Positions 834 through 56,706 of a stretch of DNA of 64,000 bases are shown here, in pieces. The DNA lies in contig CAVTCL010000023.1 in assembly GCA_963733175.1 (NCBI GenBank), forward strand, positions 1,130-65,129, given 5' to 3'. Made by a program: the position numbers and the translations under genes. The stretch is from an uncultured Actinomycetota bacterium. Its GTDB lineage: Bacteria; Actinomycetota; CALGFH01. Within the stretch, counting starts at the first letter, position 1, and each line of letters starts with the position of its first letter. The notes under the pieces are model-generated. The model saw only the letters and a list, made by a program, of their open reading frames with translations. It was not told the DNA's origin and ran no database searches.

Positions 834-861
834 TGGCCGATGCTAGCCGCCGGGAGATGAT

Positions 862-2571: not shown

Positions 2572-2593
2572 CCCAGCACCCAGGAGGCCGTCC

Positions 2594-3208
2594 ATGCCAG
2601 CTTCGCTCCCCCGACTCCTCGGCTACGCCGCCGCCGGCGCCGGGGTGGCCGCGGCCGGCTACATCGGGCTGGTGACCGGCGCGCTCCCGGTCGACCTGGG
2701 CGTCGGTCGGCGCACCCGGCCGCTGGGACCGCAGCAGCTGGAGATCGCCGCCCCCCGCGAGCTCGTCTTCGACCTCATCGCCCAGCCCTACCTGGGCCGG
2801 GCCCCGCGGGCCATGGCCGACAAGCTCCGGGTGCTGGAACGCGGCAGCGACATGGCCCTGGCGGCCCACTTCACCCCCCTCGGCGGGCGGCTCGGCCTGG
2901 TCGCCCAGACGGTCGAGACGGTCCGCTTCACCCGCCCCGAGCGGGTCGACTTCCGGCTCGTCCGCGGGCCGGTGCCGCACGTCGTGGAGGCGTTCGTGCT
3001 CACCGGGCAGGCGGGCGGCGCCGGCACCAGGCTGGTCTACGACGGGGAGATCGGCGCCGACCTCTGGGGGGCGGGGGAGCGGTGGTGCGCGCTGGTCGCC
3101 CGCCGCTGGGAGCAGGCCGTCGCCAGCTCGCTGGCCGGCGTCAAGGCCGAGGCCGAACGGCGCGCCTCGACCTCCGCGGCCCGCCGCCGTCCCACCGACC
3201 AGGAGTGA
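2594..3208 (+). CDS. SRPBCC (polyketide cyclase/START-like) family protein with N-terminal hydrophobic anchor
   Basis: ATG 2594 preceded by AGGAGG (2582-2587). It lies in the frame of ORF 2051..3208. The pattern LEIAAPRELVFDLI...VRFTRPERVDFRLVRGP...LVYDGEIG...SLAGVKAEAERR is typical of SRPBCC proteins. Confidence 0.65.
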   Translation: MPASLPRLLGYAAAGAGVAAAGYIGLVTGALPVDLGVGRRTRPLGPQQLEIAAPRELVFDLIAQPYLGRAPRAMADKLRVLERGSDMALAAHFTPLGGRLGLVAQTVETVRFTRPERVDFRLVRGPVPHVVEAFVLTGQAGGAGTRLVYDGEIGADLWGAGERWCALVARRWEQAVASSLAGVKAEAERRASTSAARRRPTDQE

Positions 3209-3384
3209 TGCCGCCACCCCCGCTGGCGACGACGCCGACGCTGACGGTGACCATGACTTGGGGTACCAGACCCGCAGAACCGGGTCAATAGGGCGAACGC
3301 GTTGCCCGACCCGCCGCTCCGGCGGACCGTGCATCATGGGATGCGCCATACCCGACGGCCGGACGGTGAGGAGGTGCTGCTCGC

Positions 3385-4372
3385 GTGAGGATCGAATCCT
3401 CGGTGATCTCGGTGTCGTGGATCCCCAGGGAGGCCATCGAGGGGGTGGTGAAGCTGCCCTTCGAGCTGGGCGTGGCCCACTACGACCTGCCGCCGCCCGA
3501 CCGGCTGGACGACCTGGAGGGCCTGCTCGGCTCCAGCGCCATCCGCTTCGCCAACGAGCTGCGGGCCTTCATCGAGGTCGACGGCGACGGCCGGGTCACC
3601 GGGCACGGGCACCTCGGCCGGGGCCACATGGGCCACACCCGCATGCGGCTGGCCGGGATCGGCCTGACCTTCGGCGGGGTCAGCTTCCCCGACCTGCGCG
3701 GGGAGCCCGAGGTCGGCGACGGCGTGGTCCGCTTCACCCAGACGGCCGGCGGCCAGCCGGGCATGCCGTCGCCCCGGCGGGTCCGGCGGCGGCCCTACCT
3801 CCAGGTCTCGGGGCCGGTGGTGTGGTCGACGCTGGCCCTCACCATCCGCGCCGACGGGACCGCCGACTTCGAGGTGGTCGGGGCCAGCTCGTTCCCGCGC
3901 CACTGGATCTACGGCCACGACGGGACCCTGCAGGCCAAGACGGGCCTGATCGACTTCGACACCTGGTACCGGGAGTCGTTCGGCGAGAAGAACCCGTGGG
4001 GCGACGAGGAGTCGCCGACGGTGGTCACCGCCGTGGAGACCGAGCTGGAACGGGAGCTGTCGGCCATCATCATCGGCTCCGACCCGCCGTTCCGGCGGCT
4101 GCGCGCCGGCGAGGCCCTCGTCGAGCAGGGCGAGGCCGGCGACGAGCCTGTTCCTGCTGTTCGACGGGGTCCTGGCCGTCGAGCAGGACGGCCGGCAGGT
4201 GGCCGAGGTCGGCCCCGGCGCCATCCTGGGCGAGATGGCCCTGCTGGAAGGGGGCCGCCGGACGGCGACCCTGCGGGCCGTGACCCGCTGCCGGGTGGCG
4301 GTCGTGCCCGGCGACCGGGTCGACCGGGCCGCCCTGGCCGAGGTGGCAAGGCGCCGCCGGGACGGCGGCTGA
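3385..4372 (+). pseudogene. cyclic-nucleotide-binding domain protein with unrecognised ~230-aa N-terminal domain; frame broken near 4147 (frameshift or 1-nt assembly error)
   Basis: ORF 3385.. is protein-like up to ...LRAGEALVEQGEAGDE. After one extra C at ~4147 the cNMP-binding consensus continues in the next frame (LFLLFDGVLAVEQDGRQVAEVGPGAILGEMALLEGGRRTATLRAVTRCRVAVV) to TGA 4370-4372. Confidence 0.75.
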
Positions 4373-4381
4373 GCGGCGACC

Positions 4382-7300
4382 ATGCTGACCTGCGCGAACT
4401 GCGGCGAGCAGAACCCGGAGCGGGCCCGGTTCTGCCTCAACTGCGGCGCCGCCCTGGCCTCCGAGCAGCGGCGCGGCGCCCGCAAGGTGGTCACGGTGGT
4501 GGTCTGCGACGTGACCGGCTCGACGGCGCTGGGCGAGCGGCTGGACCCGGAGTCGCTGGGGCGGGTCATGGCCCGCTACTTCGAGCGGACCAGGGCGGTG
4601 CTGGAGCGCCACCACGGGCTGGTGCAGAAGTTCATCGGGGACGCGGTGGTGGCCACCTTCGGGGTCCCGGTGGTCCGCGAGGACGACGCCCTGCGGGCGG
4701 TCAGGGCGGCCGCGGCCATGCAGGACGCGGTGGCCGACCTGGACGAGGCGGGCGGGCCGGCGATCGAGGTCCGCATCGGGGTCGCCACCGGCGAGGTGAT
4801 GGTCGAGGAGGGCGGCGGCGACCCGCTGGTCATCGGCGAGGCCGTCAACCTGGCGACCCGCCTCCAGGCCGCCGCCGGCCCCGGGGAGGTGCTGCTGGAC
4901 CGCCGGACCTGGCATCTGTCCCGCGACGCCCTGGTCGCGGCCGAGGTGGACGGGTCGGCGCCTCGGACGGCCCCGGGGACGGGCCTGGCGGCTGGTCGAC
5001 GTGTCCCCGGACGCCCTCGGGCACGCCCGGCGCTCGGACAACCCGCTGGTGGGCCGGCTGGCCGAGCTGCAGCTGTTCGACTGGATGTTCCAGCGGGCGG
5101 TCAGGACCTCGACCTGCCACCTGCTGACCGTGCTCGGCCCGGCCGGGGTCGGCAAGTCGCGGCTGGTCGCGGCGGCCGTCGACGCCATCGGCGACGCCGC
5201 CACCGTGCTGTCCGGCCAGTGCTCCTCGGGGGTCGAGGGGAGCAGCTTCTGGCCGCTGGCCGAGATCGTCCGCCGGGCCGCCGAGATCAAGACGGCCGAC
5301 TCGCCCGAGCAGGCCGAGGCCAAGCTGGAGGCGCTGCTCGACGACCCCGACGGCGAGCGGGTCACCGACCGGCTGGGGCGGCTGATCGGGCTGCGGCCGG
5401 CGCCGGTGACCTCCGAGGACGCCCTGTGGGCGGTGCGGCGGTTCCTGGAGGTGCTGGCCGACCGGCACCCGCTGGTGGTGGTGATCGACGACCTCCACTG
5501 GGCCCAGCCGGCCCTGCTCGACCTGCTCGAGCAGGTCGTGGCCCAGGCCAGGGAGGCGAGCATCCTGGTGGTGGCCGTGGCCCGGCCCGAGCTGCTGGAG
5601 CAGCGGCCCGGCTGGTCGGGCGGGCGCCTGAACGCCAGCACCATGCTGCTGGAGCCGCTGGCCGCCGAGGAGTCGGCGACCCTGCTGGAGCACCTGGCCG
5701 GGGAGGCGGCCCTGCCCAGCGACGCCACCGACCGCATCACCCGGACCGCCGAGGGCAACCCGCTGTTCCTCGAGGAGCTGCTGGCCATGCTGATCGAGGA
5801 GGGCCGGCTGCGCCGCGACGGCGGCCGCTGGGTGGCCGACGACCTGGCCGCCGCGACCACCCCGCCGACCATCCAGGCGCTGCTGGCCGCCCGGCTGGAC
5901 CGCCTGGCCGGCGAGGAGCGGGCCCTGCTGGACCGCGCCTCGGTCATGGGCCAGGCCTTCGACCGGGCGGCCGTGCTCGCCCTCACCCCCGAGCCGGCGC
6001 GGGCCGCGGCCGACGCCCACCTGCTGGCCCTGGTCCGCAAGGAGCTGCTGCGCCCGGCCCAGGCGCCCCTGGGCGGCCGCGACGGCTTCCAGTTCCGCCA
6101 CCAGCTCGTCCGGGACGCCGCCTACGACTCGCTGCCCAAGCAGACCCGGGCCGAGCTGCACGAGCGCTACGCCGCCTGGCTGGCCCAGGCGTATGCGGCC
6201 CGCGGCGGCGAGGTCGGGGAGGTGCTCGGCTGGCACCTGGAGCGGGCCTACCGGTTCCTGACCGAGCTCGGCCCGGTGGACGCCCACGGCCGCCAGGTCG
6301 CCGAGGCCGCCGCGGCCCAGCTGGCCGCGGCCGGCCACCTCGCCACCGGCCGCGGCGACCTGCCGGCCGCCGCCAACCTGCTGGAGCGGGCCATCGCCCT
6401 GCTCCCGCCGGGCGACCGGACCAGGCTGCGGCTGCTCACCGACCTGGGCGAGGTCCTGATCCTCAACGTCGAGACCGAGCGGGCCCAGCGGGTCCTCGAC
6501 GAGGTCATGGCCGCCGCCGAGCGCACCGGCGACCGGGGGCTGGCCGCCCACGCCAGCCTGGGCAAGCTGGAGCTGCGCCTCGACTCGCCCGACCGGGGCC
6601 CCGACCGCTACCGGGCCGACGTCCAGCAGGTCCTCTCGCTCCTGGAGGACCTCGGCGACGAGCAGGGCCAGTCGCGCGCCTGGCGGCTGCTGGGGCTGGA
6701 CAGCTACCTGCGCTGCCGCGTCGGCCGGGCCGAGGACGAGTTCCAGCGGGCGGTCGAGCACGCCCGCGCCGCCGGCGACGAGCGGGTCGAGGCCGGCAAC
6801 CTGTACGCCCTGGTGCAGGCGGCGTTCTGGGGGCCGACCCCGGTCGCCGAGGGGATCCGCCGCTGCCAGGAGATCCGCGGCCGGGCCGAGGGCAGCTACC
6901 GGGTGGAGATGTCGGCGCTCCACACCCTGGCCGGGCTGCACGCCATGGCCGGCGAGTTCGACCGGGCCCGCGAGCTCGGCGACCAGGCCGTGCAGATCGC
7001 GGACAAGCTCGGACCGAGCCGCTTCGCCGCCCTGTGCAGCCAGTTCCTCGGCCAGGTGGAGCTGCTGGCCGGCGACCCGGGGGCGGCCGCGCGCTGGCTG
7101 CGCTGGGGCGCCGGCATCCTGGAGCGGATGGGGGAGCGGGGGCTGCGCTCGGAGCTCACCGCCAACCTGGCCAGGGCGCTGGCCGCCCAGGGCCTGGACG
7201 ACGAGGCCGTGGAGCAGGCCGCCCTCAGCGGCGAGCTGGCCGTCCGCGACGACCTGTACGCCCAGGTCGAGCGGCGCGGCCCCCTGGCCGCGGTGCTGGC

Positions 7301-43586: not shown

Positions 43587-44445
43587 ATGCCGCAACGGTC
43601 GCTGACCGTCGGGACCGTCCAGGTCACCGCCGTGTGCGACGTCACCGGCGACTTCCCCGTCCCCCTCGACCAGGCCTTCCCCGGGGTCGAGGCGGCGGCG
43701 TGGGCGCCCTGGCGGCGCCGCCACCCGGACGCCTTCAGCGGCCACGACCGCTGGCGGCTGCGCGACTGGTGCTTCGTGGTCCGGGCCCGGGAGCGGGTGG
43801 TGCTGGTCGACACCGGGGTCGGGGGCGAGGGGGTGCCCGGCGCCACCTGGATCGGGACGCCGGGACGGCTCCCCGAGGAGCTGGCCGCCGCCGGGGTCGA
43901 GCCGGACGAGATCGACCTGGTCGTCCTCACCCACCTGCACCTCGACCACATCGGCTGGAACCTGGCCTGGGACGGCGACCGGCCCCGGCCGCGGTTCCCG
44001 AGGGCCCGCTACCTGGTCCAGCGGGCCGACTGGGAGCTGTTCGCCGCCAGGGGCGACGAGGGACCGGGCGGCGTTCGACCGCTGCGTGGCCCCGCTCCAG
44101 TCCCTCGGGGTGGCCGAGCTGCTGGACGGCGACCGGGTCCTCGACGACCAGCTCAGCCTGGTCCACACCCCCGGGCACACCCCGGGCTCGCAGAGCCTGC
44201 TGGTCCGCTCCGGCGACGACGCGGCCCTGCTCTGGGGCGACGTCGCCAACCACCCGGCCCAGGTCGGCGAGCCCGACTGGGGGCCGGGCAGCGACGTCCA
44301 GCCCGAGGTGGCCCGAGGCACCAGGCGGCACCTGCTCGACCGCATCGAGAGCGAGAGCATGTGGCTCGCCCCGGCCCACTTCCCCGAGCCGTTCGGCACC
44401 GTGACCCGGGACGCGGACGGCCGCCGCTGGCAGGGCCGCCGGTGA
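43587..44445 (+). pseudogene. MBL-fold metallo-hydrolase, frame broken at ~44059
   Basis: VVLVDTGVG and THLHLDHIGWN lie in ORF 43587... After GDE the sequence continues in ORF 44086..44445 (DRAAFDRCVAPLQSLG..., HTPGHTPGS). Confidence 0.75.
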
Positions 44446-44462
44446 CGGCAGGGCCGGCCGCC
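44167..44462 (+). repeat. 296-bp direct repeat, copy 1 (3' end of the MBL hydrolase gene plus 17 nt downstream)
   Basis: Aligns colinearly with 45898-46193 at a constant offset of 1731 nt with about 10 mismatches. Confidence 0.9.
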
Positions 44463-44533
44463 TCCCAGGCCGGAGCCCCGGTCGTCGTGGGCGCGGGTGA
44501 GCGGCGCAAATCGGCTGTCATGGAGTCGCCGGG

Positions 44534-45410
44534 TCAGGCGGCGGCACCGTGTTTTCGATGTGGTGGGGTGGCAGTCGAGCCGGCCATCTGGCTGGCGGGT
44601 GAGCTGCCAGCCGCCCTCGTGGACCGCGCGATGGTGGGCCCGGCAGAGCAGGGCCAGGTTGTCGAGGTCGGTGGGGCCGCCGTGGAGCCAATGTCGGAGG
44701 TGGTGGGCTTCGCACCAGGCCGGGGGTCGGTCGCAGCCGGCCACCACACAGCCGCCGTCGCGGACGATCAGGGCGGTGCGTTGGGCGGGGGTGACGACCC
44801 GGCTGGTCCGGCCGACCTCCAGCGGTTGGGTGGGGGCGCCGCCCAGGGTCGGGGGGAGCCGGGTCGCCGCCGTCTGGAGCCAGCCCGCCAGGCCTGGCAT
44901 CGCCGCTGGGGTAGTGGGCCGCTGGGTGGTCGTCGCCGTCCGGGTCCTGGTGGGTGGGGTGGCGGGTGACCAGGACCCGGGTGACGGCGGCGTCGCAGGC
45001 CAGCCGCCGGCAGGTCTCGGGGTCCAGCGGCCAGGGCCCGCCGGTCTCCCCGCCCAGCCCATCGGGGTGGCTGAGGAGGCTGTCCAGGTCCACGGTGACC
45101 AGCAGCTGGGGGCGGACCCCACCGCTCTGGGGGAGTTGGCCGCTCTCCAGGGTGCGGCGGGCCAGCTCGGTCAGGGCATCGGCGCGTACGCTGGCCACCG
45201 CTGCGCGCATCCTGGGCGTCGGTGGGGCGGGCCAACGGCTCCAAGGCGGCGAGCAGGGTCTGGCCGGCCTCGGGGTCCAACAACCCCTGGAGGGCGACCA
45301 TGCCCTCCCAGGTGGGCGACAGCCACAGGCCCCGCCGCTGATGCTGCCGTTCGGCCTGGGCCTGGGCACCGTCGGGGTCGGCGACCAGCGCCTGAACCCC
45401 GCTTGTGTCC
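44534..45410 (-). pseudogene. DUF222/HNH endonuclease (13E12-repeat type) remnant, 5'-truncated and multiply frameshifted
   Basis: Segments over three frames: ERQHQRRGLWLSPTWEGMVALQGLLDPEAG; RADALTELARRTLESGQLPQSGGVRPQLLVTVDL...RRLACDAAVTRVLV; VVTPAQRTALIVRDGGCVVAGCDRPPAWCEAHHLRHWLHGGPTDLDNLALLCRAHHRAVHEGGW. The first ~200 aa are absent. Confidence 0.7.
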
Positions 45411-45897
45411 CGGCCGGTGTTCTGGCCGGCTGGCTGGTCGAATGGGTGTTCGAGTCCATGGTAGCAACCTATCAGCCCCGCACTCCAAGGCAAGCACCAA
45501 GCCGAAAATGTGGATAACCCAGCCGTCACCGACTTCACCAGACCCAGCATCGAGGGATCGACCGCGGCGGTGGACAGCCGCAGGCACCTCACCTTGTCGG
45601 CGACGATCCCCGATCAAGGCCCAGCGCTCGGACCCAGGTCGTCGCAGCGTACCCACCGGGTCGAGGGCAACCCCGTGCCAGGCAACTGCATGGGGCCCCG
45701 ACACCCGTGACCACCCTGCCAGCTCCCCGCACGGGACCCCGACGACCCCAGGCACCCGACCCACCCTGCCACCCAACCACACGGGACCCGACGGCCCCGG
45801 GAAGGCCCACCCGACCCCGACCCGACGCCTGCATCCAATTCCCCTCAACCGGGGTACCTGACCGGCTCCCTAGCCCGGCCCCGTCTTGAGGGCGGCG

Positions 45898-46193
45898 ACC
45901 CCCGGGCACACCCCGGGCTCGCAGAGCCTGCTGGTCCGCTCCGGCGACGACGCGGCCCTGCTCTGGGGCGACGTCGCCAACCACCCGGCCCAGGTCGGCG
46001 AGCCCGACTGGGGGCCGGCCAGCGACGTCCAGCCCGAGGTGGCCCGCGGCACCAGGAGGCACCTGCTCGACCGGATCGAGAGCGAGGGCATGTGGCTCGC
46101 CCCGGCCCACTTCCCCGAGCCGTTCGGCACCGTGACCCGGGACGGGGACGTCCGCCGCTGGCAGGGCCGCCGATGACGGCAGCGCCGGCCGCC
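45898..46193 (+). repeat. 296-bp direct repeat, copy 2 (orphan 3' fragment of the MBL hydrolase gene), preceded by a 27-nt copy of the downstream gene's 3' end (45870-45896)
   Basis: ORF 45886..46176 reads ...HTPGSQSLLVRSGDDAALLWGDVANHPAQVGEPDWGP..., nearly identical to ORF 44086..44445. CTAGCCCGGCCCCGTCTTGAGGGCGGC at 45870 copies 46196-46222. Confidence 0.9.
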
Positions 46194-46195
46194 GG

Positions 46196-49103
46196 CTAGC
46201 CCGGCCCCGCCTTGAGGGCGGCCGTGCCGATGTGGAAGCCGAGGGCGCGGTAGGCGTCGAACTGCTCGTGGTCGAAGAACTGGTCGCCGGTGCTCTGGCG
46301 GGGGAAGGCGGCCTCCTTCAGGGCGTAGGTGAGCAGCTCGTACGGCATGTCCGGGGTGAGCACGGCCTTGGCCACGACCAGGGTGCCGTGGCGGGACGGC
46401 TCCTCGTCGGGGGTGACCGCGAACGGCTCCGGGTACTCGATGTCCCCGCGGACCACCGCCTGGCGGGACAGGCGGGCGTTGAGCCGCTCCAGGACCTCGG
46501 AGGGCTCCAGCGGGGGGGCGCTGCCCGGCACCAGGCCGGTCGGGTCGCGCAGGGTGATCCGCACCCCCAGCTCCTCGTAGGCCAGGGTGATCGCCTCGGC
46601 CAGGGTGGTGGCGAACGGCGGCGCGTCGCCGCTGGCGTCCAGGCAGTAGACGGTCCGGCACCGGTGGCGCAGCAGCTCGACCAGGCCGAGGTTCTCCCAG
46701 TGGCCGCCGTCGGTGCAGAGCAGCATGCGGCCCTCGGCGGGGTAGGCGCCGATGATCTCGCGGAGCTGGTAGGGGAGCCGGCGGGCCCCGGGCAGGCGGG
46801 GCGTCCGCCAGCTCGCGTCGGGCCGGCCGAGCGCGGCCAGGAAGGCCGGGTTGGGCAGCCAGGTCCCGAGCCGCACGTTGGACAGGGCCAGCAGCCGCTG
46901 CACGGCGGCGGCGTGGCGGCCCATGGCCGAGGCGATCGCCGCCCCGGACACGGCCATGGCCGCCTGCACGGTCACGTCCCGCCGCAGGGCGGGCTTGCAG
47001 GTCTCCTCCAGGGTGCTGGTCCGGACCCAGCCGACGTCGGGCCCGCCGACGTAGTCCCCCGACATCGTGAACGCCGCCGCCCGGCGTCCCGGCGGGGTCC
47101 GCGACTGGCCCGACAGGGCGGCGGCGGCCACGAAGATGACCTGCGGGAACCCGTCGGCCCGCTGGCCGTAGGCGCTGAGGGTGGTCGGCTCCTCGATCGC
47201 GTAGGCCAGGGCGCCGGTCCCGCCGTCGGGCATGTGGGCCCGGCGGACGGCGAACGCCGAGGCCAGCCGGCGCCGGTAGAACGGGTGCAGCCCCAGCCAG
47301 GTCTGGTCGATCAGGAAGCCCGCCCCGACCAGCACGGCCAGCAGGACCAGGCCCAGCCAGGCCGGCCAGCGGTGGGCGGCAGCGGTCGTCCAGGCGCCCA
47401 CGAACACGAACACGAAGGCCAGCACCGCGTGCACCGCCCAGACGATCAGGCGCTGCCCGAGCCCGGTGGCGACCTGCCGCTCGACCACCTCGCCCTGGTC
47501 CCGGCGGCCCAGCAGGCCGCCCAGCCCCAGCTTGGCCCCGCTGGCCCGCAGCTTCTCGGTCCGGCGCCACGTCGTGCCGGCCAGGGCGCCGAACCAGGTG
47601 ACCAGGGTGGTGACGACGGCGGTGAAGGAGGCGGCCGGCACCGGGTTCTCGACCCCGGTCGCCCAGGTGAGCCGGGTCATCGCCCAGACGACCGCCGGCA
47701 CGGCGATGGCGTAGACGGCGACCACCGCGGTCACGCCGACGGTGGCCCGGAACAGGTTGCGGGCCACCCGGGCCAGGCCGAGCCGGTCGTTGCTGGCCAG
47801 CAGCCCCACCATCACCACCACCCAGGCGACGGCGGCGATGGCGGCCCCGACGCCCAGCGCCCACCAGACCGCTTCGGGGGGCGCCGGGTACGCGGCCGGC
47901 TCCGGCCCGCTGGCCGGGTCGAACCGGGGCAGGAGCCGGGTGACGTCGACCACCGGCGCCGCCCGGTAGAAGGCGTTGAGGCCGACCCCGATCACCACCA
48001 CCCCGAGGGTCAGCAGCCCGAGCGACGCGGCCACCCCGCGCAGCACCACCCCGAGCGCCGTCAGCCACTCGCGGCCGCCGTCGGCCAGGTACTTGCCGTG
48101 GCGGCGCAGGTGGTCCTCCTCGGCCGACCCGGGCGCGAACACGTCCCCCGGCGCGGCCAGCGACTCGGCCTTCGGGTTGGCCCGGGTCAGGGCGAGCTGG
48201 AAGGCGCCGGTCATGTACCCGCCGCCGGACACCGACACCAGGTAGCGGGCCCGCGACAGGACGTCGCGCTGGAGCGCCTGGAGCGCCCCCAGGGTGACCG
48301 AGGCCGAGCGGATCCCGCCGCCCGAGGCGCAGATGCCGACCTCCGCGGGCGGCCGCCCCGGCGGGACCCGGCCGGCGTTGCGCCAGCGGGCCTGGGCCTC
48401 GCCGGGCAGGTCGGTGTGGGGGTGGTCGTCCTCGGCGGCCACCTCGGCCGCCCGGTCCCGGCCCGCCTCGGTGTAGAGCTCCTGCTGGACGTCGGGGCCG
48501 GACTGGCCGATCGCTGGCCGACAGGGTGGCCGTCGAGGCGTCGGCCACCGCCGGCGGCAGGATGATGTCGGGACGCCGGTCGGTCCCGGGGTCGAGCTCG
48601 CTCGCCCGGGCGATCTCGGGCGCGGCGGCGTTCCCGTGGCCCCGCACCCGCGACCGCCTGGACAGCCGGCGGCCGAGCAGGACGCTGGCGACCACCACGA
48701 AGACCGGCAGCAGCGGGCCGGCGACGGCGAACTTCAGCACCGCCAGGGGGGTCGCCACCTCGGACGCCGGCTGCCCGCCGGCGCCGGTCGACCCGCCGAG
48801 CGGGGCCAGGTTCTCGGCGACGTCGGCCGCCGCGACCAGCAGCACGCCGCCGGCGCACCAGCGGGCGACCCGCCGGGCCCCCGACCCGTACAGGAACAGG
48901 GCGCCGAGGCCGAACACCCCCACCCCGGCCAGCACGTAGCCGGCGATCAGGAGCCAGTCCGACCGGAGGGCCTCCTGGTCGACGCCCTGCCCGCCGTCGA
49001 GCTCCCGCCAGCCCAGGTACAGCAGGGGAGCGCCGACGACGACGGCCACGATGGCCAGGGCCGTCAGCGCGGCCCGGGCATCACGGGCGGCACGAACCCC
49101 CAC
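46196..49103 (-). pseudogene. polytopic membrane patatin/cPLA2-like phospholipase, frame broken at ~48515
   Basis: GICASGGGIRSA, SVSGGGY nucleophile elbow and CTDGGHWENLG Asp motif lie in ORF 46196..48442, with ~7 TM helices between the Ser and Asp motifs. A 4-TM N-terminal region (from GTG 49103) is in another frame (part of ORF 45870..49517). Confidence 0.75.
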
Positions 49104-49208
49104 GATCTCCCTGCACCCCCTCAGACCCCCACGGGCCGGGCGAGGCTCGCAGGTTCCTCCCGACCCGTCAACCGCCACCCAGGGTGGCCGTTGGATTAGC
49201 ATTGGCCC

Positions 49209-49594: not shown

Positions 49595-50117
49595 GTGTCC
49601 TTCAAGGTCGCCAAGGTCCTCGACGTCGCCCAGGGGGTGCAGAAGGACCAGTTCACGGTCGTGTCGCGGGAGGAGAAGGAGTCGCTCGACGACCTCGACC
49701 CGGTGTACCGCCGGCTGCTCGACGAGCCGGTGACCGCCGTGATCGCGGTCATGGGCGACGACGGGCGTCCCTGGCTGACGCCGGTCTGGTTCAACTACGC
49801 CGGGGACAGGGTGCTGCTCAACCTGGCCGAGCACCGCCGCAAGACCGACTGCATCCGGCGCAACCCGCAGGTGACCATGCTGCTGATGAACCCGGAGAAC
49901 CCCTACCACTGGGTCAGCCTCAAGGCGACCGCCGAACGCGAGGTCCAGCGAGGACGACCCGGCCGAGGGGCGCCGGGCCACCGAGACCATCGACCAGTCG
50001 TGGACCAAGTACACCGGCGCCGAGCCGCCCTACGGCCTCCGCGACCCGGCCATGGACGAGCGGCGGGTGCTGTTCGAGTGCCGCGTCGACAGCGTGGCCG
50101 TGTTCGGCCAGCCGTAG
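49595..50117 (+). pseudogene. pyridoxamine 5'-phosphate oxidase (PPOX) family protein, frame broken at ~49945
   Basis: GTG 49595. VTAVIAVMGDDGRPWLTPVWFNYAGDRVLLN...HRRKTDCIRRNPQVTMLL, then after EREV the frame shifts (SEDDPAEGRRATETIDQSWTKYTG...RVLFECRVDSVAVFGQP*). Confidence 0.7.
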
Positions 50118-50138: not shown

Positions 50139-51323
50139 GTGCCCGACTGGCCGCGGGTCGCGGTGGTCGGGGGCTCGCTGGGCGGGCTCACGGCCGCGCT
50201 GGTCCTGCGCGACCTCGGCTGCGAGGTCGACGTGTTCGAGCGGTCGACGGCGGAGCTGGAGAGCCGCGGCGCCGGCATCGTGGTGCTGGAGGCCACCGTC
50301 CGCTACCTGCGCGAGCGGACCGACCTGGACCTGGGCCAGCTCACCACCGCCACCGGCCACCTGCGCTACCTGGGCCGTGACGGCGGCATCGTGTACCAGG
50401 AGCCGCGGCGCTACCGGTACTCGGCCTGGCACACCATCTACCGGGCGCTGCTCGGCCGCTTCGGCCGCCGCCGCTACCACCTGGGCAGAGAGCTGGTCGG
50501 TTTCGAGCAGCGGGCCGGGCAGGTCGCCCTGCGCTTCGCCGACGGCTCGGAGGGCGCCTGCGAGCTGCTGGTGTCGGCCGACGGCATCGCCTCCCGGGCC
50601 CGGGCCGCGCTCCAGCCCCAGGCCCGGCCGGCCTACGCCGGGTACGTGGCCTGGCGGGGCACGGTCGGCGAGGGCCGGCTCGGCCCGGCCGTGCGCGACC
50701 TGCTGGCCGACTCGATCTGCTACCAGCTCGTGCCGGCCAGCCACATCCTCTGCTACCCGATCCCGGCGCCGGACGGGTCGGTGGCCCCCGGCCGGCGCCT
50801 GGCCAACTTCGTCTGGTACCGGAACTACACCCCCGAGGAGCTGGAGGACCTGATGACCGACCGGGACGGGGCCCGCCGCGAGGTCACCCTGCCGCCGGGC
50901 GCGGCCCGCGACGCCCACCTGCGCGAGCTGCGGGCCGTGGCCGCCGGCCAGCTCGCCCCCCAGCTGGCCGAGGTCGTGGAGCGCACCGAGCGCCCCTTCG
51001 TCCAGGTGATCTCCGACATCGAGGTCGAGCGGATGGCGTTCGGGCGGGTCTGCCTGCTCGGCGACGCCGCCTTCGCCCTGCGCCCCCATGCCGCCGCGGG
51101 CACGGCCAAGGCGGCCGCCGACGCCTGGGCGCTCGCCGAGGCGCTGGCGGCCAGCGGCGGCGACCTGGCGGCGGCGCTGCCGCGCTGGGAGCGCCGGCAG
51201 CTCGCCGTCGGGCGGGCGGTGCTCCAGCGCACCCGCCGCAACGGCGACCGCTCGCAGTTCGAGGGGACCTGGCGCCCCGGCGACCCCGAGCTCGTCTTCG
51301 GCCTCCACGGGCCCGGCCGCTGA
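50139..51323 (+). CDS. FAD-dependent aromatic-ring monooxygenase
   Basis: VAVVGGSLGGLTAAL dinucleotide fold, SADGIASRAR, LLGDAAFALRPHAAAG. Confidence 0.85.
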   Translation: MPDWPRVAVVGGSLGGLTAALVLRDLGCEVDVFERSTAELESRGAGIVVLEATVRYLRERTDLDLGQLTTATGHLRYLGRDGGIVYQEPRRYRYSAWHTIYRALLGRFGRRRYHLGRELVGFEQRAGQVALRFADGSEGACELLVSADGIASRARAALQPQARPAYAGYVAWRGTVGEGRLGPAVRDLLADSICYQLVPASHILCYPIPAPDGSVAPGRRLANFVWYRNYTPEELEDLMTDRDGARREVTLPPGAARDAHLRELRAVAAGQLAPQLAEVVERTERPFVQVISDIEVERMAFGRVCLLGDAAFALRPHAAAGTAKAAADAWALAEALAASGGDLAAALPRWERRQLAVGRAVLQRTRRNGDRSQFEGTWRPGDPELVFGLHGPGR

Positions 51324-51354
51324 CCCGGCTGTCGCCGGGCGTCGGGCGAAGGTT

Positions 51355-52334
51355 ATGGTGACGGGCGTGGGACAGCAGCCTGCCTCGCCCCCCGCCCCGA
51401 CGGCGGTCGTCGCCGAGTCGGAGTTCCCGCCGCTGTACCTGGCGGCCGACCAGAACTCGCTCGACGGCCAGCGCCGCTTCCTCAACGCCACCCGCCTGCG
51501 GCTGGCCATGCTGGTCCTGGCGGCGGCGTTCGGGCTGTTCACCTGGCGCACGGCCGGCGGCGACCTGGCCGGGATCGGGGCCGCGGCCGCCTTCGTCGTC
51601 GCCCTGCTGGCCGAGCTCTACCTGCTCCAGGCGCGGCCCGACCGGCTCTGGTACGACGGGCGGGCGGTGGCCGAGTCGGCCAAGACCCTGACCTGGCGCT
51701 ACCTGGTCGGCGGCAGCCCGTTCGGCCGGGAGGAGGTCAACGAGCGGGAGGCCGACAAGCTGCTGCTGGACCGGTTCCGCCAGATCACCGGCAGCCTCGG
51801 CGGGGCGCACCTGGTCCCGATCACCGGCGCCGCCGAGCAGATCAGCCCGGCGCTGCGGCGCACCTGGTCCCGATCACCGGCGCCGCCGAGCAGATCAGCC
51901 CGGCGATGCGGCGCTACCGCTCGCTGCCGCTGGAGGAGCGGCGCGAGCTCTACCGCAACGGGCGGATCGGCGGCCAGCAGGCCTGGTACGCGCGCACCGC
52001 CCGCTGGAACGAGCGCCGGGCGACCCAGTGGTCGCTGGTCCTCACCACCCTGGAGGCGCTGGGGCTGGCCGGGGGTGTCCTCAAGGCGACCGGCGTGCTC
52101 CGGGTCGACCTGCTCGGGCTGGCCAGCGCGGTGGTCGCCGCCGGCGCCGCCTGGGTCCAGGCCAAGCAGCACCAGACCCTGGCCACCGCCTACGCCGTCA
52201 CCAGCCAGGAGCTGTCGGTGATCAGCGGCCAGGTCGACTGGGCGTCCACCGAGCAGGAGTGGGCGCACTTCGTCGACCAGGCCGAGGAGGCCATCTCGCG
52301 GGAGCACACCCTCTGGCGGGCGTCCCGCAGCTGA
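51355..52334 (+). pseudogene. tandem SLATT/DUF4231-like 4-TM protein, disrupted by a 53-bp tandem duplication
   Basis: N half (2 TM, then WYDGRAVAESAKTLTWRYLVGGSPF) lies in the frame of ORF 51088... C half (RELYRNGRIGGQQAWY..., 2 TM, ...AYAVTSQELSVI...FVDQAEEAISREHTLW) lies in ORF 51906..52334. Removing one 53-bp repeat unit joins them into a ~308-aa ORF. Family call is by recall. Confidence 0.6.
51804..51909 (+). repeat. 53-bp tandem duplication (2 units, 1 mismatch)
   Basis: GGCGCACCTGGTCCCGATCACCGGCGCCGCCGAGCAGATCAGCCCGGCG(C/A)TGC occurs at 51804-51856 and 51857-51909. Confidence 0.95.
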
Positions 52335-52348
52335 CGCCAGGGCTTGGA

Positions 52349-52406
52349 GTCGGCCTTCGGCCGACGATCACACAGAGCTCCGACCGGCAGAGCGGTCGCC
52401 GGTCGG
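52349..52406. terminator. two stem-loops between convergent genes
   Basis: GTCGGCC-ttc-GGCCGAC (52349-52365) and CCGACCGGC-agagcggtc-GCCGGTCGG (52380-52406) lie in the 73-nt gap between the SLATT stop and the GAF-TIR stop. Confidence 0.5.
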
Positions 52407-52407
52407 G

Positions 52408-53523
52408 CTACCCGGCGTCGTCGCGGAGCAGGGCCACGATCCGGCGCTGCATCTGCGCCCGGAGCCGCTCCTCCACGACCTGGCCGTCCTGGTCGCGCGG
52501 CACCTTCTCGATGCGCTGGTCGGCGAAGTCGAACGGCGCCGGCGGCGAGCTCTCCTCCCGCACCGGGATCCACCCCGACGGCGGCGCGTCGGGCGCGTTG
52601 ATCAGCGCGTGCAGCATGCCGGCCTCGAAGATCACGTTCGGGTTGTCGACATAGCCGTGCTCGGCCCCTGACGGGGCCGGCTCGGAGAAGTAGCAGATGC
52701 CGTAGCGGGAGCGGACGATCCGGTCGGCGATCTGGCTGGTGATCGCGCCCGAGTCGGCGATCTCGTGCCAGTCGAAGACGCTCACCTTGCTGTCGAACTC
52801 GGCCAGCACCCCCTTGAGGATGCCGAGCACGTGGCTGTCGGCGTTGTCGGCCGAGGCCAGGAACAGGTTCGGCTTGGTCAGGCGGGGGAACTTGGCCTGC
52901 CCCAGGAACCGCCCGAGCTGGCCCACCGCCTTCTCGGTCCCCTCCGTCTGGGCCTTGTTGGCGTCGCGCAGCTCGATCAGGATGGCGAGCGCCTCGGCCA
53001 GCGTCGTCAGCTCGTGCTTGGCCACCGGCGTCGCCTCGACGTGGGTGGTCGACTCGAGGTACATCACGCCCAGCGGCCGCCCGAGGCGGACCAGCGGCAG
53101 CATGATCGAGGTCTTCATCGGCTCCTCGGCCGGCGACACGTACCGGGGCAGCCCGGTGACGTCCGACCACAGGTCCAGGTACCCGGCCGGGTCGTCGACG
53201 TCGCGCAGCGCCCCGCCGTCGGCGGCCACGACCCACAGCGGCCGCCGCTGGTCGAAGGCGATCGACACCTGCCGGGTGTAGCCGTCCCCGCTCCTGATGG
53301 TGGTCCCGGACCCCTGGTCGGCGCTGCTCCAGGTCGTCTGCAGCCCGGGCTGCCCGTCGATCCTCGACCTCGTCATCAGCCCGAAGTAGGCGGCCTCGAG
53401 CTCGTTGCGCATGTACTCCACGACATGGTCCCGGACCCGGTTGAAGGTCGCCTGATCCACGATGTCGACCGAAAGGGCGAACTGCCGCAGCAGCTCGGCG
53501 AAGGTCTTGACCAGCTCGCTCAT
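52408..53523 (-). CDS. GAF domain + TIR-like (COG4271 / PF10137-type) domain protein
   Basis: Intact 371-aa ORF, ATG after GGGGAGG. The N-terminal ~190 aa are GAF-like (RRPLWVVAADGG...SIMLPLVRLGRPLGVMYLES). The C-terminal half has LFLASADNADS..., YGICYFSEP and NPNVIFEAGMLHAL, as in TIR-like nucleotide-binding effectors. Confidence 0.6.
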   Translation of the reverse strand: MSELVKTFAELLRQFALSVDIVDQATFNRVRDHVVEYMRNELEAAYFGLMTRSRIDGQPGLQTTWSSADQGSGTTIRSGDGYTRQVSIAFDQRRPLWVVAADGGALRDVDDPAGYLDLWSDVTGLPRYVSPAEEPMKTSIMLPLVRLGRPLGVMYLESTTHVEATPVAKHELTTLAEALAILIELRDANKAQTEGTEKAVGQLGRFLGQAKFPRLTKPNLFLASADNADSHVLGILKGVLAEFDSKVSVFDWHEIADSGAITSQIADRIVRSRYGICYFSEPAPSGAEHGYVDNPNVIFEAGMLHALINAPDAPPSGWIPVREESSPPAPFDFADQRIEKVPRDQDGQVVEERLRAQMQRRIVALLRDDAG

Positions 53524-53602
53524 CGCATGCCTCCCCGGCTCCAGGCCACCGCAGAGGCATACCAGGTTCGGGCTCGTACGAACAGTCCCGATTGCACAGA
53601 TC

Positions 53603-53618
53603 AGGCGGGGCCCCGCCT
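53603..53618. terminator. perfect 16-nt palindrome AGGCGGGGCCCCGCCT
   Basis: It overlaps the stop of the LPXTG gene and separates that gene from the GAF-TIR promoter region. Confidence 0.45.
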
Positions 53619-54103
53619 AGGCTGTCCTGGCTCCCCGGCCTGGGCGGTAGCCGGAGGCCCGCACCAGCACGGCCCCGGCGAGCAGCAGGGCAGCGGCCAG
53701 CCCGGCCAGGGTCGGCAGGCGGGCGGGGCCGGTGAACGGCAGGGGGCATTCGCCGGCGATGGTCAGCTCGGAGAAGGCGAACGGCTTGGCGGCGCCGGGC
53801 CGGGAGATGCGTCATGCGGACCGACTTCACCCCGGTGAGCGGGACCTTGGCCCGCAGCGTCATGGCGCCGTCGGCGCCGGTCGTGACCGACGCCTGGTGC
53901 AGGGTGGCGTCGTTGGCGGCGTTCTGGAACCGGAGGTCGAGCTTGGTGCTGGCGGGCAGCTCGAACCCGGTGACCTGCAGGGTCCCGCAGCTCACCAGGG
54001 CAAGGTCGGCGTGGAGGTGGTCCGGCTGGGCGGCGGCGGGGCTGGCCAGCAGCCCCAGCAGCAGCACCGCGCCCGCGACCGGAGAGACCCTGAGCCAACG
54101 CAT
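53617..54103 (-). pseudogene. small secreted LPXTG-anchored surface protein, frame broken at ~53806-53818
   Basis: ATG 54103 after GGAAGGAA. Signal peptide MRWLRVSPVAGAVLLLGLLASPAAA. After ...GVKSVRM the next frame gives RISRPGAAKPFAFSELTIAGECPLPFTGPARLPTLAGLAAALLLAGAVLVRASGYRPGRGARTA*, i.e. LPFTG + TM + basic tail. Confidence 0.65.
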
Positions 54104-54983: not shown

Positions 54984-56570
54984 CTACGGGGTGGGGGTCT
55001 CCTTGACGGTCGTGTCGGCCTCGATGTCGGCGACGTGGGTGGTGCCGTAGCCCTCGACCTGGGGGCGGCCGTGCTCGCCCCGGGTCATGGCGAACTCCTC
55101 CTCGGGGGAGAGCACCAGGCGGTTGCGGCCCGAGATGGCGAAGTAGGCGATCCCGAGCACGAAGTAGATCAGGGTCCCGTACAACCCCGGCCGGTAGTCC
55201 TCGTTGGAGTACAGCGAGATCAGCGAGACCAGCGCGATCACCCCGGCGATGCCCGCACCCCATATGCCCACCGGGCTGCGGTAGGGCCGCTCGATGTTCG
55301 GGTACTTGCGGCGCAGCAGGATGAACGACAGGCACTGCATGAAGTAGGAGATGACGGCGCCGAACACGGCCATGTTCAGCAGCGCGCCCACGACCTGCCC
55401 GGCGAAGGCGCCGCTGCCCTTGCTGCAGCTGGTAGATCAGGACGGCCAGGGCGTAGCCGACGACCGCGCCCGCGATCAGGGCGACGATGCGGGGTGTTGC
55501 GGGTGCGGGTGGGTGACCGACAGCCACTTGGGGAAGTAGCCGGCCCGCGACAGCGAGAAGGTGTTGCGGCCGTACGCGTAGATGATGGTGAAGAAGCTGG
55601 CGATCAGGCCCGTCAGCCCGATCAGGGCGAGCAGCTCGGCCGCCGTGCCGTCGCCGAAGACGGCCTTGAAGCCGTCGAACAGCGGGGTGGCCGAGGTGCC
55701 GATGCTGGCCGCGCCCCCGTCGACCCCGGTGTTGAGGAGCAGGATGCCCAGGCCGGTCACGATCAGGGTGACGAGCCCCCAGATGGTGGCCCGGGGGACG
55801 TCGCGGGCCGGGTCGTGGGACTCCTCGGCGGCCAGCGGTAGCTCCTCGATGGCCAGGTAGAACCAGATGGCGAACGGGATGGCCGGGAAGATGCCGGCGA
55901 TCCCCTTGGGCAGGAAGCTCGAGCCACCCTCCTCCGGCGGGATGTTGGTCCACAGGCTGGTGTCGAGCTTGCCCGACGCCAGCACCGAGATGAAGAAGAA
56001 GGCCAGGATCCCGAGGGCGAGGATGTTGATCACCACGGTGAACCGCATGGTGGCCTCGATGCCGATGATGTTGATCCCCACGAAGATCACGTAGAAGACC
56101 GCCCACCAGGTCACCGGGCTGTTCCACCAGGGTGAGCCGACGATGTCGAACAGCCCGGCCATGATGTCGTGCATCAGGAAGCCCATGGCGCTCACCACCA
56201 CGGCCGGGGTGATCACGTACTCCATGTTCTCGGCCAGCCCGGTGATGAACCCGCCCCAGGGCCCCATGGCCGAGCGGGCGAAGGAGTAGGCCCCGCCGGT
56301 GTGGGGCAGGGCCGGCGACATCTCGGCGATGCTGAAGCACAGGCCGAAGTACATGATCGTGATGACCACCGTCGCGATCAGCAGCCCGCCGAACCCGCCG
56401 GCGTCGAGCCCCAGGTTCCACCCGTAGAAGTCGCCCGAGATGACGGCCGCCACCCCCAGCGACCACAGCGACCAGAAGGCCGCGTGCCGCCGGAGCGTGC
56501 GTTTGCCGAAGTAGTCCTCGCCGGCCTCCTCGTAGCTCACCGAGCCGACTCGGCGTCGTTCCTGAGCCAC
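54984..56570 (-). pseudogene. eat: ethanolamine permease (APC superfamily), frame broken at ~55490 and ~55425
   Basis: ORF 55476..56630 (..SRAGYFPKWLSV), a short middle piece TPRIVALIAGAVVGYALAVLIYQLQQ in a third frame, then ORF 54984..55391 (GALLNMAVFGAVISYFMQ...). GTG 56570 after AAGGGGG is preferred as the start. Confidence 0.8.
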
Positions 56571-56617
56571 GCCGCAACCCCCTTGTCTGCTCGACAGCGG
56601 CCCTGGCCGCGTCGGGA

Positions 56618-56706
56618 AGTTGTCTGACATTACTTGACGCTGGGCGGATGGTAAGGGGGTGTTCGTACCGAGTCAAGCTCCTTGACCCTGGCTGAGTTGT
56701 CTGACG
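56618..56706. promoter_or_regulatory. repeated GTTGTCTGAC motifs (putative GntR/HutC operators) and candidate promoter
   Basis: AGTTGTCTGACAT (56618-56630, contains palindrome TGTC-T-GACA) and AGTTGTCTGACGT (56694-56706). The second lies between TTGACC (56682) and TATACT (~56707), about 10 nt before the gntR ATG. Confidence 0.4.

Follow-up and report, generated by a model that had tools for sequence, protein, structure and literature searches.

TIR-based signalling, as in Thoeris, connects bacterial, plant and animal immunity, and the sensing of infection by the TIR component is still poorly understood. The PF10137 family is known from NAD-depleting effectors, and the SLATT domains were reportedly first described by Burroughs et al. 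in 2015. The adjacency of a TIR gene and a SLATT gene was noted earlier by Aravind's group (PMC9503650). Type VII Thoeris consists of the TIR protein ThsB and the SLATT effector ThsH, with canonical cADPR as the signal; these TIR and SLATT systems protect against phages, their SLATT effector is activated by cADPR, and they have been reported in Actinomycetota (Yirmiya et al., preprint of December 2025, bioRxiv 10.64898/2025.12.03.692087). In the same preprint, ThsB together with ThsI (a CMP-hydrolase-TPR effector) forms type VIII Thoeris, mixed ThsH and ThsI operons are reported for cADPR-based Thoeris, the 'SLOG Patatin' TIR operons are left untested, and standalone TIRs are dropped by the pipeline. 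GAF is mentioned neither in the text of that preprint nor in the parts of its tables that were examined, and no description of a GAF-TIR architecture was found in a literature search.

The window analysed in this study is a stretch of 64,000 nucleotides from an uncultured Actinomycetota bacterium. It harbours two convergent genes, one encoding a SLATT protein and the other a protein with a GAF and a TIR-like domain, whose coordinates and gene anatomy were correct in the initial annotation. The features of the region are the following:

51355-52334, plus strand: thsH-like SLATT_3 + SLATT_1 effector gene, encoding 308 aa once repaired and frameshifted after residue about 167.
51804-51909, plus strand: 53-nt tandem duplication (copies 51804-51856 and 51857-51909) that breaks the SLATT reading frame.
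51906-52334, plus strand: leftover 142-aa ATG ORF with the whole SLATT_1 unit (residues 182-303 of the repaired protein) inside it.
52335-52407, no strand assigned: convergent spacer of 73 nt with two GC-rich hairpins (52349-52365 and 52380-52406).
52408-53523, minus strand: intact gene for the GAF + TIR-like protein of 371 aa, proposed to serve, like ThsB, as sensor and signal synthase.
52489-52884, minus strand: PF10137-like TIR-like domain, residues about 214-345 (profile, AF2 domain model).
52624-52626, minus strand: codon of the putative catalytic glutamate, Glu300 of the NVIFEAGM motif, invariant in 34/34 homologues.
52972-53448, minus strand: GAF domain, residues about 26-184 (Pfam GAF_2, AF2 model, Foldseek).

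Removal of either 53-nt copy from the SLATT gene restored an ORF of 308 aa, which is the approximate length predicted in the initial annotation for the repaired protein. The tandem SLATT assignment made there was confirmed by Pfam and NCBIfam profiles. In the repaired protein, SLATT_3 (PF18184) matched residues 25-179 (E 1.5e-46; 158.9 bits, cutoff 26.3) and SLATT_1 (PF18181) matched residues 182-303 (E 2.8e-35; 121.4 bits, cutoff 26.3), DUF4231 (PF14015) scored 61.4 bits (cutoff 24.7), and the NCBIfam SLATT_3/SLATT_1 models NF033610 and NF033634 were both matched above cutoff. A Kyte-Doolittle hydropathy scan, the sole method used for the helices, detected hydrophobic segments at residues 45-63, 73-91 and 230-251, while the fourth expected helix (about 208-227) was under the threshold. 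As judged from these profiles, the repaired gene product is a SLATT_3+SLATT_1 membrane protein with four expected helices. Thirteen residues, including W99, R103, E107, S108, W114, R171, R178, Y182, R186, W249 and K253, were invariant in all members of the SLATT family (78/78), irrespective of the partner. At locus L165, a ThsB gene whose product shares 90% identity with the validated type VII ThsB of Pseudohongiella precedes a gene for a 294-aa protein with DUF4231, SLATT_3 and SLATT_1 matches. The repaired SLATT protein of the window and this 294-aa protein shared 34% identity end to end (295 columns, E 1e-47), and on this alignment the window protein is a full-length ThsH homologue.

The duplication in the SLATT gene is head-to-tail, with one mismatch between the two copies, and as 53 nt is not a whole number of codons, the frame shifts. 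In the relatives examined (L082-L084, L086 and L096) the 53-mer is single-copy at this position and the SLATT gene is intact. The single base that differs between the copies corresponds to an L/M polymorphism also present among relatives, and several 1-nt insertions were observed in the window in comparison with relatives that are about 95% identical in DNA, which together make an assembly artefact plausible. The frameshifted effector gene of the window is either a pseudogene or an assembly artefact. As the effector is frameshifted, the locus in this genome is probably inactive or mis-assembled; barring an assembly error, the module is probably dead in this window or the GAF-TIR protein alone is left of it. 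Inactivation of the SLATT effector was observed more than once, in the window gene and also in L115-L117.

For the 371-aa protein, the combination of a GAF domain and a PF10137-like TIR domain proposed from the initial inspection was upheld by profiles across 34 homologues, by AF2 models and by Foldseek. The match of GAF_2 to the window protein was marginal (28.7 bits, cutoff 28.6), that of PF10137 was under its cutoff (19.6 bits, cutoff 24.7), and PF08937 gave no match to it. Among the 34 homologues, GAF_2 matched 27 (best E 1e-8) and PF10137 matched 32 at E <= 0.01 (best 3.1e-8). The AF2 model of the full-length protein had a pLDDT of 85, with at least 88 in each 10-residue block over residues 11-190, and a long linker helix (residues 166-209) was present after the GAF domain. 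The top 50 Foldseek matches of this model were all GAF-containing proteins (target TM up to 0.74), and included Lcd1 (cAMP-bound), phytochrome and phosphodiesterase (PDE5/6) GAF domains. Since GAF matches swamped this search, the C-terminal domain was remodelled alone (pLDDT 81), and it then matched the TIR domains of TIR-STING, SARM1, MyD88 and RUN1. A profile of the TIR domain gave only non-significant matches against PDB sequences (Cat1 TIR and PdTIR, E 0.24-0.68). [quoted passage not shown] The motif DNPNVxFEAGMLH was invariant among the aligned homologues, and Glu300 aligned with a Glu that is the sole invariant position among the aligned ThsB proteins, in a profile comparison that was weak (hhalign probability 37%). 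Cyclic nucleotides are commonly bound by GAF domains. No recognisable cNMP-binding motif was seen among the conserved GAF residues when the homologue alignment was read by eye. Binding of ssDNA is another activity in which GAF domains can take part (PMC13228613).

Conserved co-occurrence of the two genes, the lack of which had been named beforehand in the initial annotation as a refutation, was observed. A convergent GAF-TIR gene was present in 27 of the 85 loci encoding SLATT_3+SLATT_1 homologues, and was the sole TIR gene in these 27; the partner was a ThsB-type TIR in 22 loci and a TIR_2-GDPD protein in 16, so that members of this SLATT family regularly adjoin some TIR gene (at least 65/85 loci). 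These counts rest on tblastn and Pfam-checked representatives; single-linkage clusters of neighbouring ORFs were dropped as a basis for counting, as spurious clusters of antisense ORFs were obtained in high-GC loci. The SLATT proteins with a GAF-TIR partner form a clade with 71-97% identity to that of the window, found in many soil metagenomes. GAF-TIR was downstream of every SLATT gene of the clade for which a downstream flank was available, with gaps of 9-135 nt. ThsB was used instead by SLATT proteins 73-74% identical to that of the window, and in an NJ tree the GAF-TIR-partnered clade was sister to ThsB-partnered SLATTs. The pair occurred in at least four distinct flanking arrangements. 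L142 has the same convergent layout at 48% and 47% identity and lacks any other TIR in the vicinity; the SLATT of this locus was placed elsewhere in the tree, among ThsB-partnered lineages. Convergent SLATT and TIR genes are also annotated on plasmids of Klebsiella (NZ_CP034132) and Rhodococcus (NZ_CP032404); a tblastn search of 72,556 plasmids gave no GAF-TIR. The cyanobacterial locus L046 was considered as a third independent GAF-TIR/SLATT pair and was counted as ambiguous. Its SLATT gene has its own upstream partner of 476 aa, read from sequence motifs as a putative TIR protein, and the GAF-TIR gene is divergent and about 640 nt upstream of the 476-aa gene.

Adjacency by chance, or a purely syntenic association of two unrelated genes inherited vertically, was judged very improbable and is already disfavoured by the data. 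Such an origin would be in keeping with the convergent orientation, as convergent genes are not co-transcribed, and most of the 27 loci are from one actinobacterial clade, so that shared ancestry inflates the count. It does not account for a pair that stays together while its flanks vary, for the independent pair of L142, for other SLATT/DUF4231 genes beside GAF-TIR in Propionibacteriaceae, another Actinomycetota MAG and Gammaproteobacteria, or for the convergent arrangement on enterobacterial and Rhodococcus plasmids. On this comparative evidence, SLATT plus GAF-TIR is a real and conserved two-gene module.

The GAF-TIR family comprises about 358 clusters at 50% identity from at least eight phyla, with a patchy distribution in Actinomycetota, Gammaproteobacteria, Cyanobacteria, Bacteroidota, Myxococcota and others. 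Its GAF subtype is nearly always fused to a TIR domain, and in one case to a CHAT protease. A recognisable effector neighbour was present in only about 12-13 of the 70 GAF-TIR genome loci; most copies are solitary, and SLATT was missing beside GAF-TIR relatives 60-67% identical. The effector genes that were co-directional with GAF-TIR encoded adjoining DUF4231/SLATT proteins (L012, L023 and L026), TPR-S/MAP3K_TRAF_bd proteins like ThsI (L012, L032, L043, L048 and L063) and patatins (L012, L043, L051 and L063). This might tentatively indicate that the family as a whole consists of Thoeris-like TIR signal synthases with their own ligand sensor and interchangeable effectors (ThsH-type SLATT, ThsI-like TPR-S, patatin), a generalisation that is possible but doubtful. 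If it were true, the solitary copies would use unlinked effectors or act as dual-use NADases, and it would be possible to identify what triggers a bacterial immune sensor of the TIR type, namely a GAF ligand. As patatins accompany GAF-TIR in other genomes, a 748-aa patatin-like gene of the window (46196-48442) was considered as a part of the module. It was rejected, as the segment that holds it is missing from close relatives; its similarity to the patatins accompanying GAF-TIR elsewhere is at the motif level only.

A GAF-gated NAD-depleting enzyme beside a pore had been the initial proposal. In this type of explanation, the GAF-TIR protein would by itself be an effector that depletes NAD+ under the control of a ligand, in the manner of Cap12 or PycTIR, SLATT would be a parallel effector or an independent system, and the nucleotide would come from elsewhere or from the phage. 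This would agree with PF10137 as the best TIR model (32/34 members), with the common binding of cyclic nucleotides by GAF domains and the Foldseek matches to cAMP-bound Lcd1 and PDE5/6, with the solitary state of most GAF-TIR genes, and with a fusion pattern (TIR nearly always, CHAT protease once) typical of a sensor joined to an effector. It was nevertheless considered rather unlikely, as it leaves unexplained why a TIR gene lies beside SLATT_3+SLATT_1 so regularly, with GAF-TIR as the sole TIR in 27 loci, why GAF-TIR is swapped for ThsB in close SLATT relatives, and why effectors of the SLATT, patatin and ThsI-like types share operons with GAF-TIR. The GAF residues without a recognisable cNMP-binding motif also stand against it, as does the lack of a cyclase as a conserved neighbour family across the 70 GAF-TIR loci or the 85 SLATT loci. 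NAD depletion fits less well with a context in which SLATT_3+SLATT_1 genes are almost always adjacent to TIR genes and GAF-TIR occurs with Thoeris-type effectors; a TIR protein that makes the signal of the SLATT effector fits it better.

On balance, the two genes probably make up a TIR-SLATT module of the same kind as type VII Thoeris, with GAF-TIR in the place of ThsB as sensor and signal maker. The earlier statement that the pair is not a named system is outdated in so far as TIR plus SLATT is type VII Thoeris. By analogy with ThsB, sensing of an infection cue or ligand by the GAF domain would switch on the TIR domain, which would turn NAD+ into a cyclic ADP-ribose-type signal. As for ThsH, this signal would bind the SLATT protein at its conserved cytoplasmic helices and lead to oligomerisation and a breach of the membrane, and death or arrest of the infected cell would follow. 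A separate cyclase would not be needed in such a scheme. The initial annotation had reported no adjacent cyclase, and neither a CD-NTase nor a pyrimidine cyclase was present among the window neighbours of the pair; this might be because the GAF-TIR protein itself makes the signal. Several observations count against the Thoeris-like reading. Most GAF-TIR genes are solitary, and a ThsB-like signal maker would be useless without an effector, so GAF-TIR proteins may act by themselves as NADases. The best Pfam match of the TIR domain is PF10137 and not ThsB_TIR, the profile link between GAF-TIR and ThsB is weak, and a GAF subtype once fused to a CHAT protease reads as a sensor plus effector. The layout is convergent, with no operon, and the effector of the window is broken. 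The PADLOC check proposed in the initial annotation gave no match at E <= 1 to either protein in PADLOC-DB v2.0.0, which holds no model for them.

The presence of two hairpins in the spacer (folding z about -2) was concordant with the initial annotation, in which each gene was given its own hairpin terminator, but the role of terminator was not sustained. A T-tract was absent at both hairpins, and the spacer between the two genes is 13 nt in L082, a relative about 95% identical in nucleotides over this region. As aligned with L082, about 60 nt of the spacer, hairpins included, is an insertion particular to the window and is not conserved. A scan of 51200-53800 for consensus terminators and promoters detected none. 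The gene upstream of the pair encodes an FAD monooxygenase and the gene downstream a CBM_4_9 protein, and no integrase or other defence gene was found beside the pair in the window. This setting amid metabolic and transport genes would suit a module for physiological signalling in soil Actinomycetota, in which NAD-derived messengers gate a membrane channel, for example in dormancy or stress, and not a phage defence. The pair is also kept at 71-97% identity over many soil metagenomes, and nothing was obtained from PADLOC. Such a function was regarded as improbable: homologous TIR and SLATT systems give phage protection (10.64898/2025.12.03.692087), GAF-TIR is patchy across phyla, the pair moves among flanking contexts, and repeated inactivation of the effector, seen in L115-L117 as well as in the window, is a typical fate of toxic genes for abortive infection.

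If the Thoeris-like reading is right, a stand-in for ThsB with a GAF domain and a signalling helix would be a tractable handle on how TIR proteins sense infection. Type VII Thoeris would be extended to a convergent layout and a PF10137-like TIR, both of which would escape operon-based and ThsB-based detection pipelines.

Among other known systems, TIR-STING of CBASS responds to c-di-GMP from a CD-NTase. It ranked first among the structures matched by the C-terminal domain model (PDB 7un8 and 9lmq) and follows the same logic as GAF-TIR, with a ligand-binding domain that controls a TIR; the two differ in domain order and in the fold of the sensor, and the sequence identity is 13-17%. Cap12 (CBASS) and PycTIR (Pycsar) resemble the window protein in the PF10137 model, in the fusion of a sensor to a TIR and in the conserved glutamate of an NVxFExG-like motif. 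They differ in that the window protein is under the PF10137 cutoff, that its sensor is a GAF and not a SAVED, STING or cNMP-binding domain, and that their cyclases (CD-NTase or pyrimidine cyclase) are neither adjacent here nor conserved in relatives. The SLATT effectors of the CBASS, DRT and GAP1 conflict systems are mostly single units or fusions to other domains, unlike the tandem found here, and their partners are SMODS, SLOG, reverse transcriptase or GTPase components, whereas the partner in the window is a TIR protein (Kaur et al. 2020, PMC7159879).

Co-directional GAF-TIR genes with TPR-S/MAP3K_TRAF_bd and patatin genes in other phyla recall type VIII Thoeris and the 'SLOG Patatin' operons, and L012, to which a SLATT gene is added, mirrors the mixed ThsH and ThsI operons. 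The likeness of TPR-S to ThsI is by shared Pfam domains alone, and TPR-S and patatin effectors are absent beside the window pair. With type VII Thoeris, the pair shares the organisation of two genes, a TIR protein and a SLATT membrane effector, with no cyclase, and its SLATT protein has the same length (about 290-310 aa) and the same SLATT_3 + SLATT_1 architecture as ThsH. The differences are in the partner, a 371-aa GAF + PF10137-like TIR protein here and usually a 130-160-aa PF08937 TIR in ThsB, and in the orientation, which is convergent here and co-directional in the ThsB-ThsH pairs examined. Close SLATT relatives of the window protein do have PF08937 TIR partners. With a GAF-fused PF10137-like TIR partner that appears undescribed, the window pair appears to be a variant of the type VII Thoeris kind.

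The convergent SLATT and GAF-TIR genes of the window probably form a variant type VII Thoeris system with a GAF-fused, PF10137-like TIR. TIR-SLATT neighbourhoods were noted by Iyer, Burroughs and Aravind, who predicted that SLATT is a membrane effector regulated by an ADPr derivative (PMC9503650). The combination of TIR and SLATT was validated as type VII Thoeris by Yirmiya et al. (bioRxiv 10.64898/2025.12.03.692087), in which canonical cADPR is made by the TIR protein ThsB upon infection and is proposed to bind the SLATT effector ThsH, leading to its oligomerisation. The initial annotation is thereby superseded on one claim, that the system is unnamed. The features of the locus are:

51355-52334, plus strand: SLATT gene, a single gene split by a 53-nt duplication
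51804-51856 and 51857-51909, plus strand: copies of the 53-nt head-to-tail duplication, with one mismatch between them
51906-52334, plus strand: residual ATG ORF, in which the SLATT_1 unit would remain encoded
52335-52407: convergent spacer of 73 nt between the SLATT and GAF-TIR genes
52408-53523, minus strand: GAF-TIR gene, intact, 371 aa

The duplication shifts the frame of the SLATT gene, and deleting either copy restores a 308-aa protein. This repaired protein matched the Pfam models SLATT_3 (residues 25-179, E 1.5e-46), SLATT_1 (residues 182-303, E 2.8e-35) and DUF4231, as well as the NCBIfam counterparts of the SLATT models. Its hydropathy profile presented distinct helices at residues 45-63, 73-91 and 230-251, and a fainter one at about 208-227. 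No duplication was found at the same position in the relatives examined. The single mismatch between the copies (C/A, 51854 versus 51907) results in Leu in the first copy and Met in the second, and the same site is an L/M polymorphism in close relatives (L in the homologous protein P0121, M in the comparison loci L082-84); either a mis-assembled mixed population or a true duplication would fit. The G+C content of the window is about 75%, and several 1-nt insertions were observed relative to L082/L084. Three of these (55425, 55484 and 55509-55513) fall inside an amino-acid permease gene (54984-56630, minus strand) which is broken into two ORFs (55476-56630 and 54984-55391), and others are at 49949 and 53810. 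The occurrence of several frame problems in one window casts doubt on its assembly quality. The broken SLATT frame may be that of a real pseudogene or an assembly artefact. The spacer exceeds that of L082 (13 nt), a relative approximately 95% identical in DNA, by about 60 nt; this additional sequence folds into two GC-rich hairpins, which are window-specific and have no other occurrence within the window. Further upstream, a segment of about 4.7 kb (44464-49186), which may be an insertion or rearrangement, is missing from L083 and L084, where 44463 abuts 49187. It holds a 748-aa multi-TM patatin-like gene (46196-48442, minus strand; weak Patatin match), and a 294-nt stretch is present in two copies, 44170-44463 resembling 45898-46191.

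For the GAF-TIR protein, the Pfam scores were marginal (GAF_2, 28.7 bits with a cutoff of 28.6; PF10137, 19.6 bits, under the cutoff of 24.7), so support from relatives and structure was needed. The relatives form a tight family of about 370 aa (186 matches). Among 34 aligned members, 32 matched PF10137 (best E 3.1e-8) and 27 matched GAF_2, and three motifs were invariant (DNPNVxFEAGMLH, W-x-P-x-RE and FDF). In the AlphaFold2 model (pLDDT 85), a GAF fold is linked by a 44-residue helix (166-209) to an alpha/beta domain, and in a Foldseek comparison of the full-length model with the PDB the top 50 matches were all GAF-containing proteins (among them cAMP-bound Lcd1, phytochromes, PDE5/6 and fRMsr). 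When the C-terminal domain was modelled separately (pLDDT 81, pTM 0.79), the best structural matches were the TIR domains of TIR-STING, SARM1, MyD88, TRAM and RUN1, with nucleoside 2-deoxyribosyltransferases and flavodoxin-like proteins (ArsH, flavorubredoxin) mixed among them. Profile-profile comparison with ThsB TIRs was weak (probability 37%), and placed Glu300 on the sole invariant ThsB residue, a Glu. The observation of the two genes in the initial annotation is confirmed, and its SLATT and GAF plus TIR-like assignments are supported.

The GAF subtype by itself yielded 358 representative clusters in a search of 1.84 billion proteins, and among the 150 listed, nearly all proteins were of 355-400 aa, or shorter and apparently partial. 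One exception is P0374 (820 aa), in which a GAF of this kind (42% identical over residues 5-209) is joined to a CHAT caspase-like protease domain, not to a TIR, and the GAF-TIR relative P0036 (locus L075) has a Peptidase_C14 gene as divergent neighbour. In the GAF-TIR alignment A1, the homologue P0011 (39-kb contig, 91% identical) loses register over some 30 residues (columns ~283-316, across the point where the TIR core begins), which looks like a compensated frameshift or sequencing error.

Conservation was assessed from the SLATT side in a set of 85 loci (80 found by scanning metagenomes, 5 by look-up), each with a SLATT_3+SLATT_1 homologue. A convergent GAF-TIR gene was present 9-135 nt downstream in 27 of these, and in the GAF-TIR-partnered clade (SLATT 71-97% identical to that of the window) it lay beside every member with downstream flank. 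The window layout also occurred in L142 (SLATT 48%, GAF-TIR 47% identical), with no second TIR in its neighbourhood. The flanks of the pair fell into at least four contexts:

Window and L082-84: FAD-monooxygenase, pair, CBM gene
L001, L086, L088 and L089: CBM gene, pair
L085, L106 and L111: block found at 57.9-60.9 kb of the window, pair
L081: Fer4_19, pair, phosphoesterase

As the flanks differ around a constant pair, the two genes travel together. Co-occurrence in other genomes had been set as a test of the proposed module and was found, and the pair stands as a real module; as previously noted, no cyclase adjoins it. From the GAF-TIR side, 70 loci were fetched from genomes of many phyla. 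Window-type SLATT genes were present in just two (L001, L046), more distant DUF4231/SLATT genes adjoined GAF-TIR in L012, L023, L026 and L065, and GAF-TIR relatives of 67% and 60% identity had no SLATT neighbour.

Other TIRs also partner this SLATT family. A small ThsB-type TIR (PF08937) was present in 22 of the 85 loci, mostly directly upstream, with extra convergent copies in a few, and a TIR_2 + TM + GDPD protein was downstream in 16; with the 27 GAF-TIR loci, a TIR gene therefore adjoins SLATT in at least 65. Another SLATT-family gene was the sole recognised neighbour in 8 of the other 20, and most of the remaining 12 had short flanks. One SLATT homologue (P0200) is fused to PF08937, and the convergent layout was also observed on annotated plasmids of Klebsiella (ThsB_TIR) and Rhodococcus (TIR_2). 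ThsB is the partner of SLATTs 73-74% identical to that of the window. In a neighbour-joining tree (78 sequences, no bootstrap), the GAF-TIR-partnered SLATTs formed one clade, sister to a ThsB/LSDAT-partnered clade, with L142 and L046 (the latter ambiguous) placed elsewhere; 13 residues were invariant in all 78 sequences, whatever the partner. One sub-clade (L134-L136, L143-L152) appears to have a distinct three-gene arrangement, in which SLATT is followed by a co-directional 544-aa TIR_2 + TM + glycerophosphodiester phosphodiesterase protein and a convergent second SLATT_1 protein of 354 aa. In three contigs (L115, L116 and L117, ~4775-4780), a ThsB-partnered SLATT_3+SLATT_1 gene, 73% identical to that of the window, is frameshifted near residue 258; the gene is intact in L077, whose ThsB is identical. 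Here the effector has been inactivated a second time, independently, as would be expected of a toxic one.

In other phyla, GAF-TIR is co-directional with protein kinds reported as Thoeris effectors, namely TPR-S/MAP3K_TRAF_bd proteins that resemble ThsI, the type VIII effector, in their Pfam domains (L012, L032, L043, L048, L063, L065), and patatin phospholipases (L012, L043, L051, L063). In L012 four genes lie side by side (588-7116, Propionibacteriaceae MAG): a SLOG-like-patatin protein on the minus strand, then, co-directionally, an NDT-like/TPR-S/SLOG-like protein, a tandem SLATT protein and GAF-TIR. This four-gene cluster resembles the mixed ThsH + ThsI operons of the 2025 preprint. A TPR-S protein likewise lies immediately upstream of a ThsB that shares 72% identity with the type VII protein. 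Because of this effector repertoire, a ThsB-like, signal-making role is favoured for GAF-TIR, and its earlier designation as an NAD-degrading effector is probably wrong. A purely terminal NADase, against which these adjoining effector kinds speak, nevertheless stays a substantial alternative, since about 80% of the 70 GAF-TIR loci had no recognisable partner.

A ThsB 90% identical to the Pseudohongiella ThsB of the preprint is followed by a 294-aa DUF4231 + SLATT_3 + SLATT_1 protein, to which the repaired window SLATT aligned over its full length (34% identity, E 1e-47); this alignment identifies the window SLATT, as judged by sequence, as a ThsH homologue. The small TIR that adjoins the nearest ThsB-partnered relatives of the window SLATT shares 27% identity with a validated type VII ThsB (E 3e-14). 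According to the preprint, its authors left out standalone TIRs as well as those of CBASS/Pycsar; GAF is mentioned neither in its text nor in the parts of its tables covered here, and no description of a GAF-TIR protein was found in the literature searched. The pair is of interest chiefly for the light that its GAF domain could shed on how TIRs are activated. The window locus shares with type VII Thoeris the TIR + SLATT gene pair and a predicted ThsH-homologous effector, but differs in that its TIR is GAF-fused and PF10137-like.
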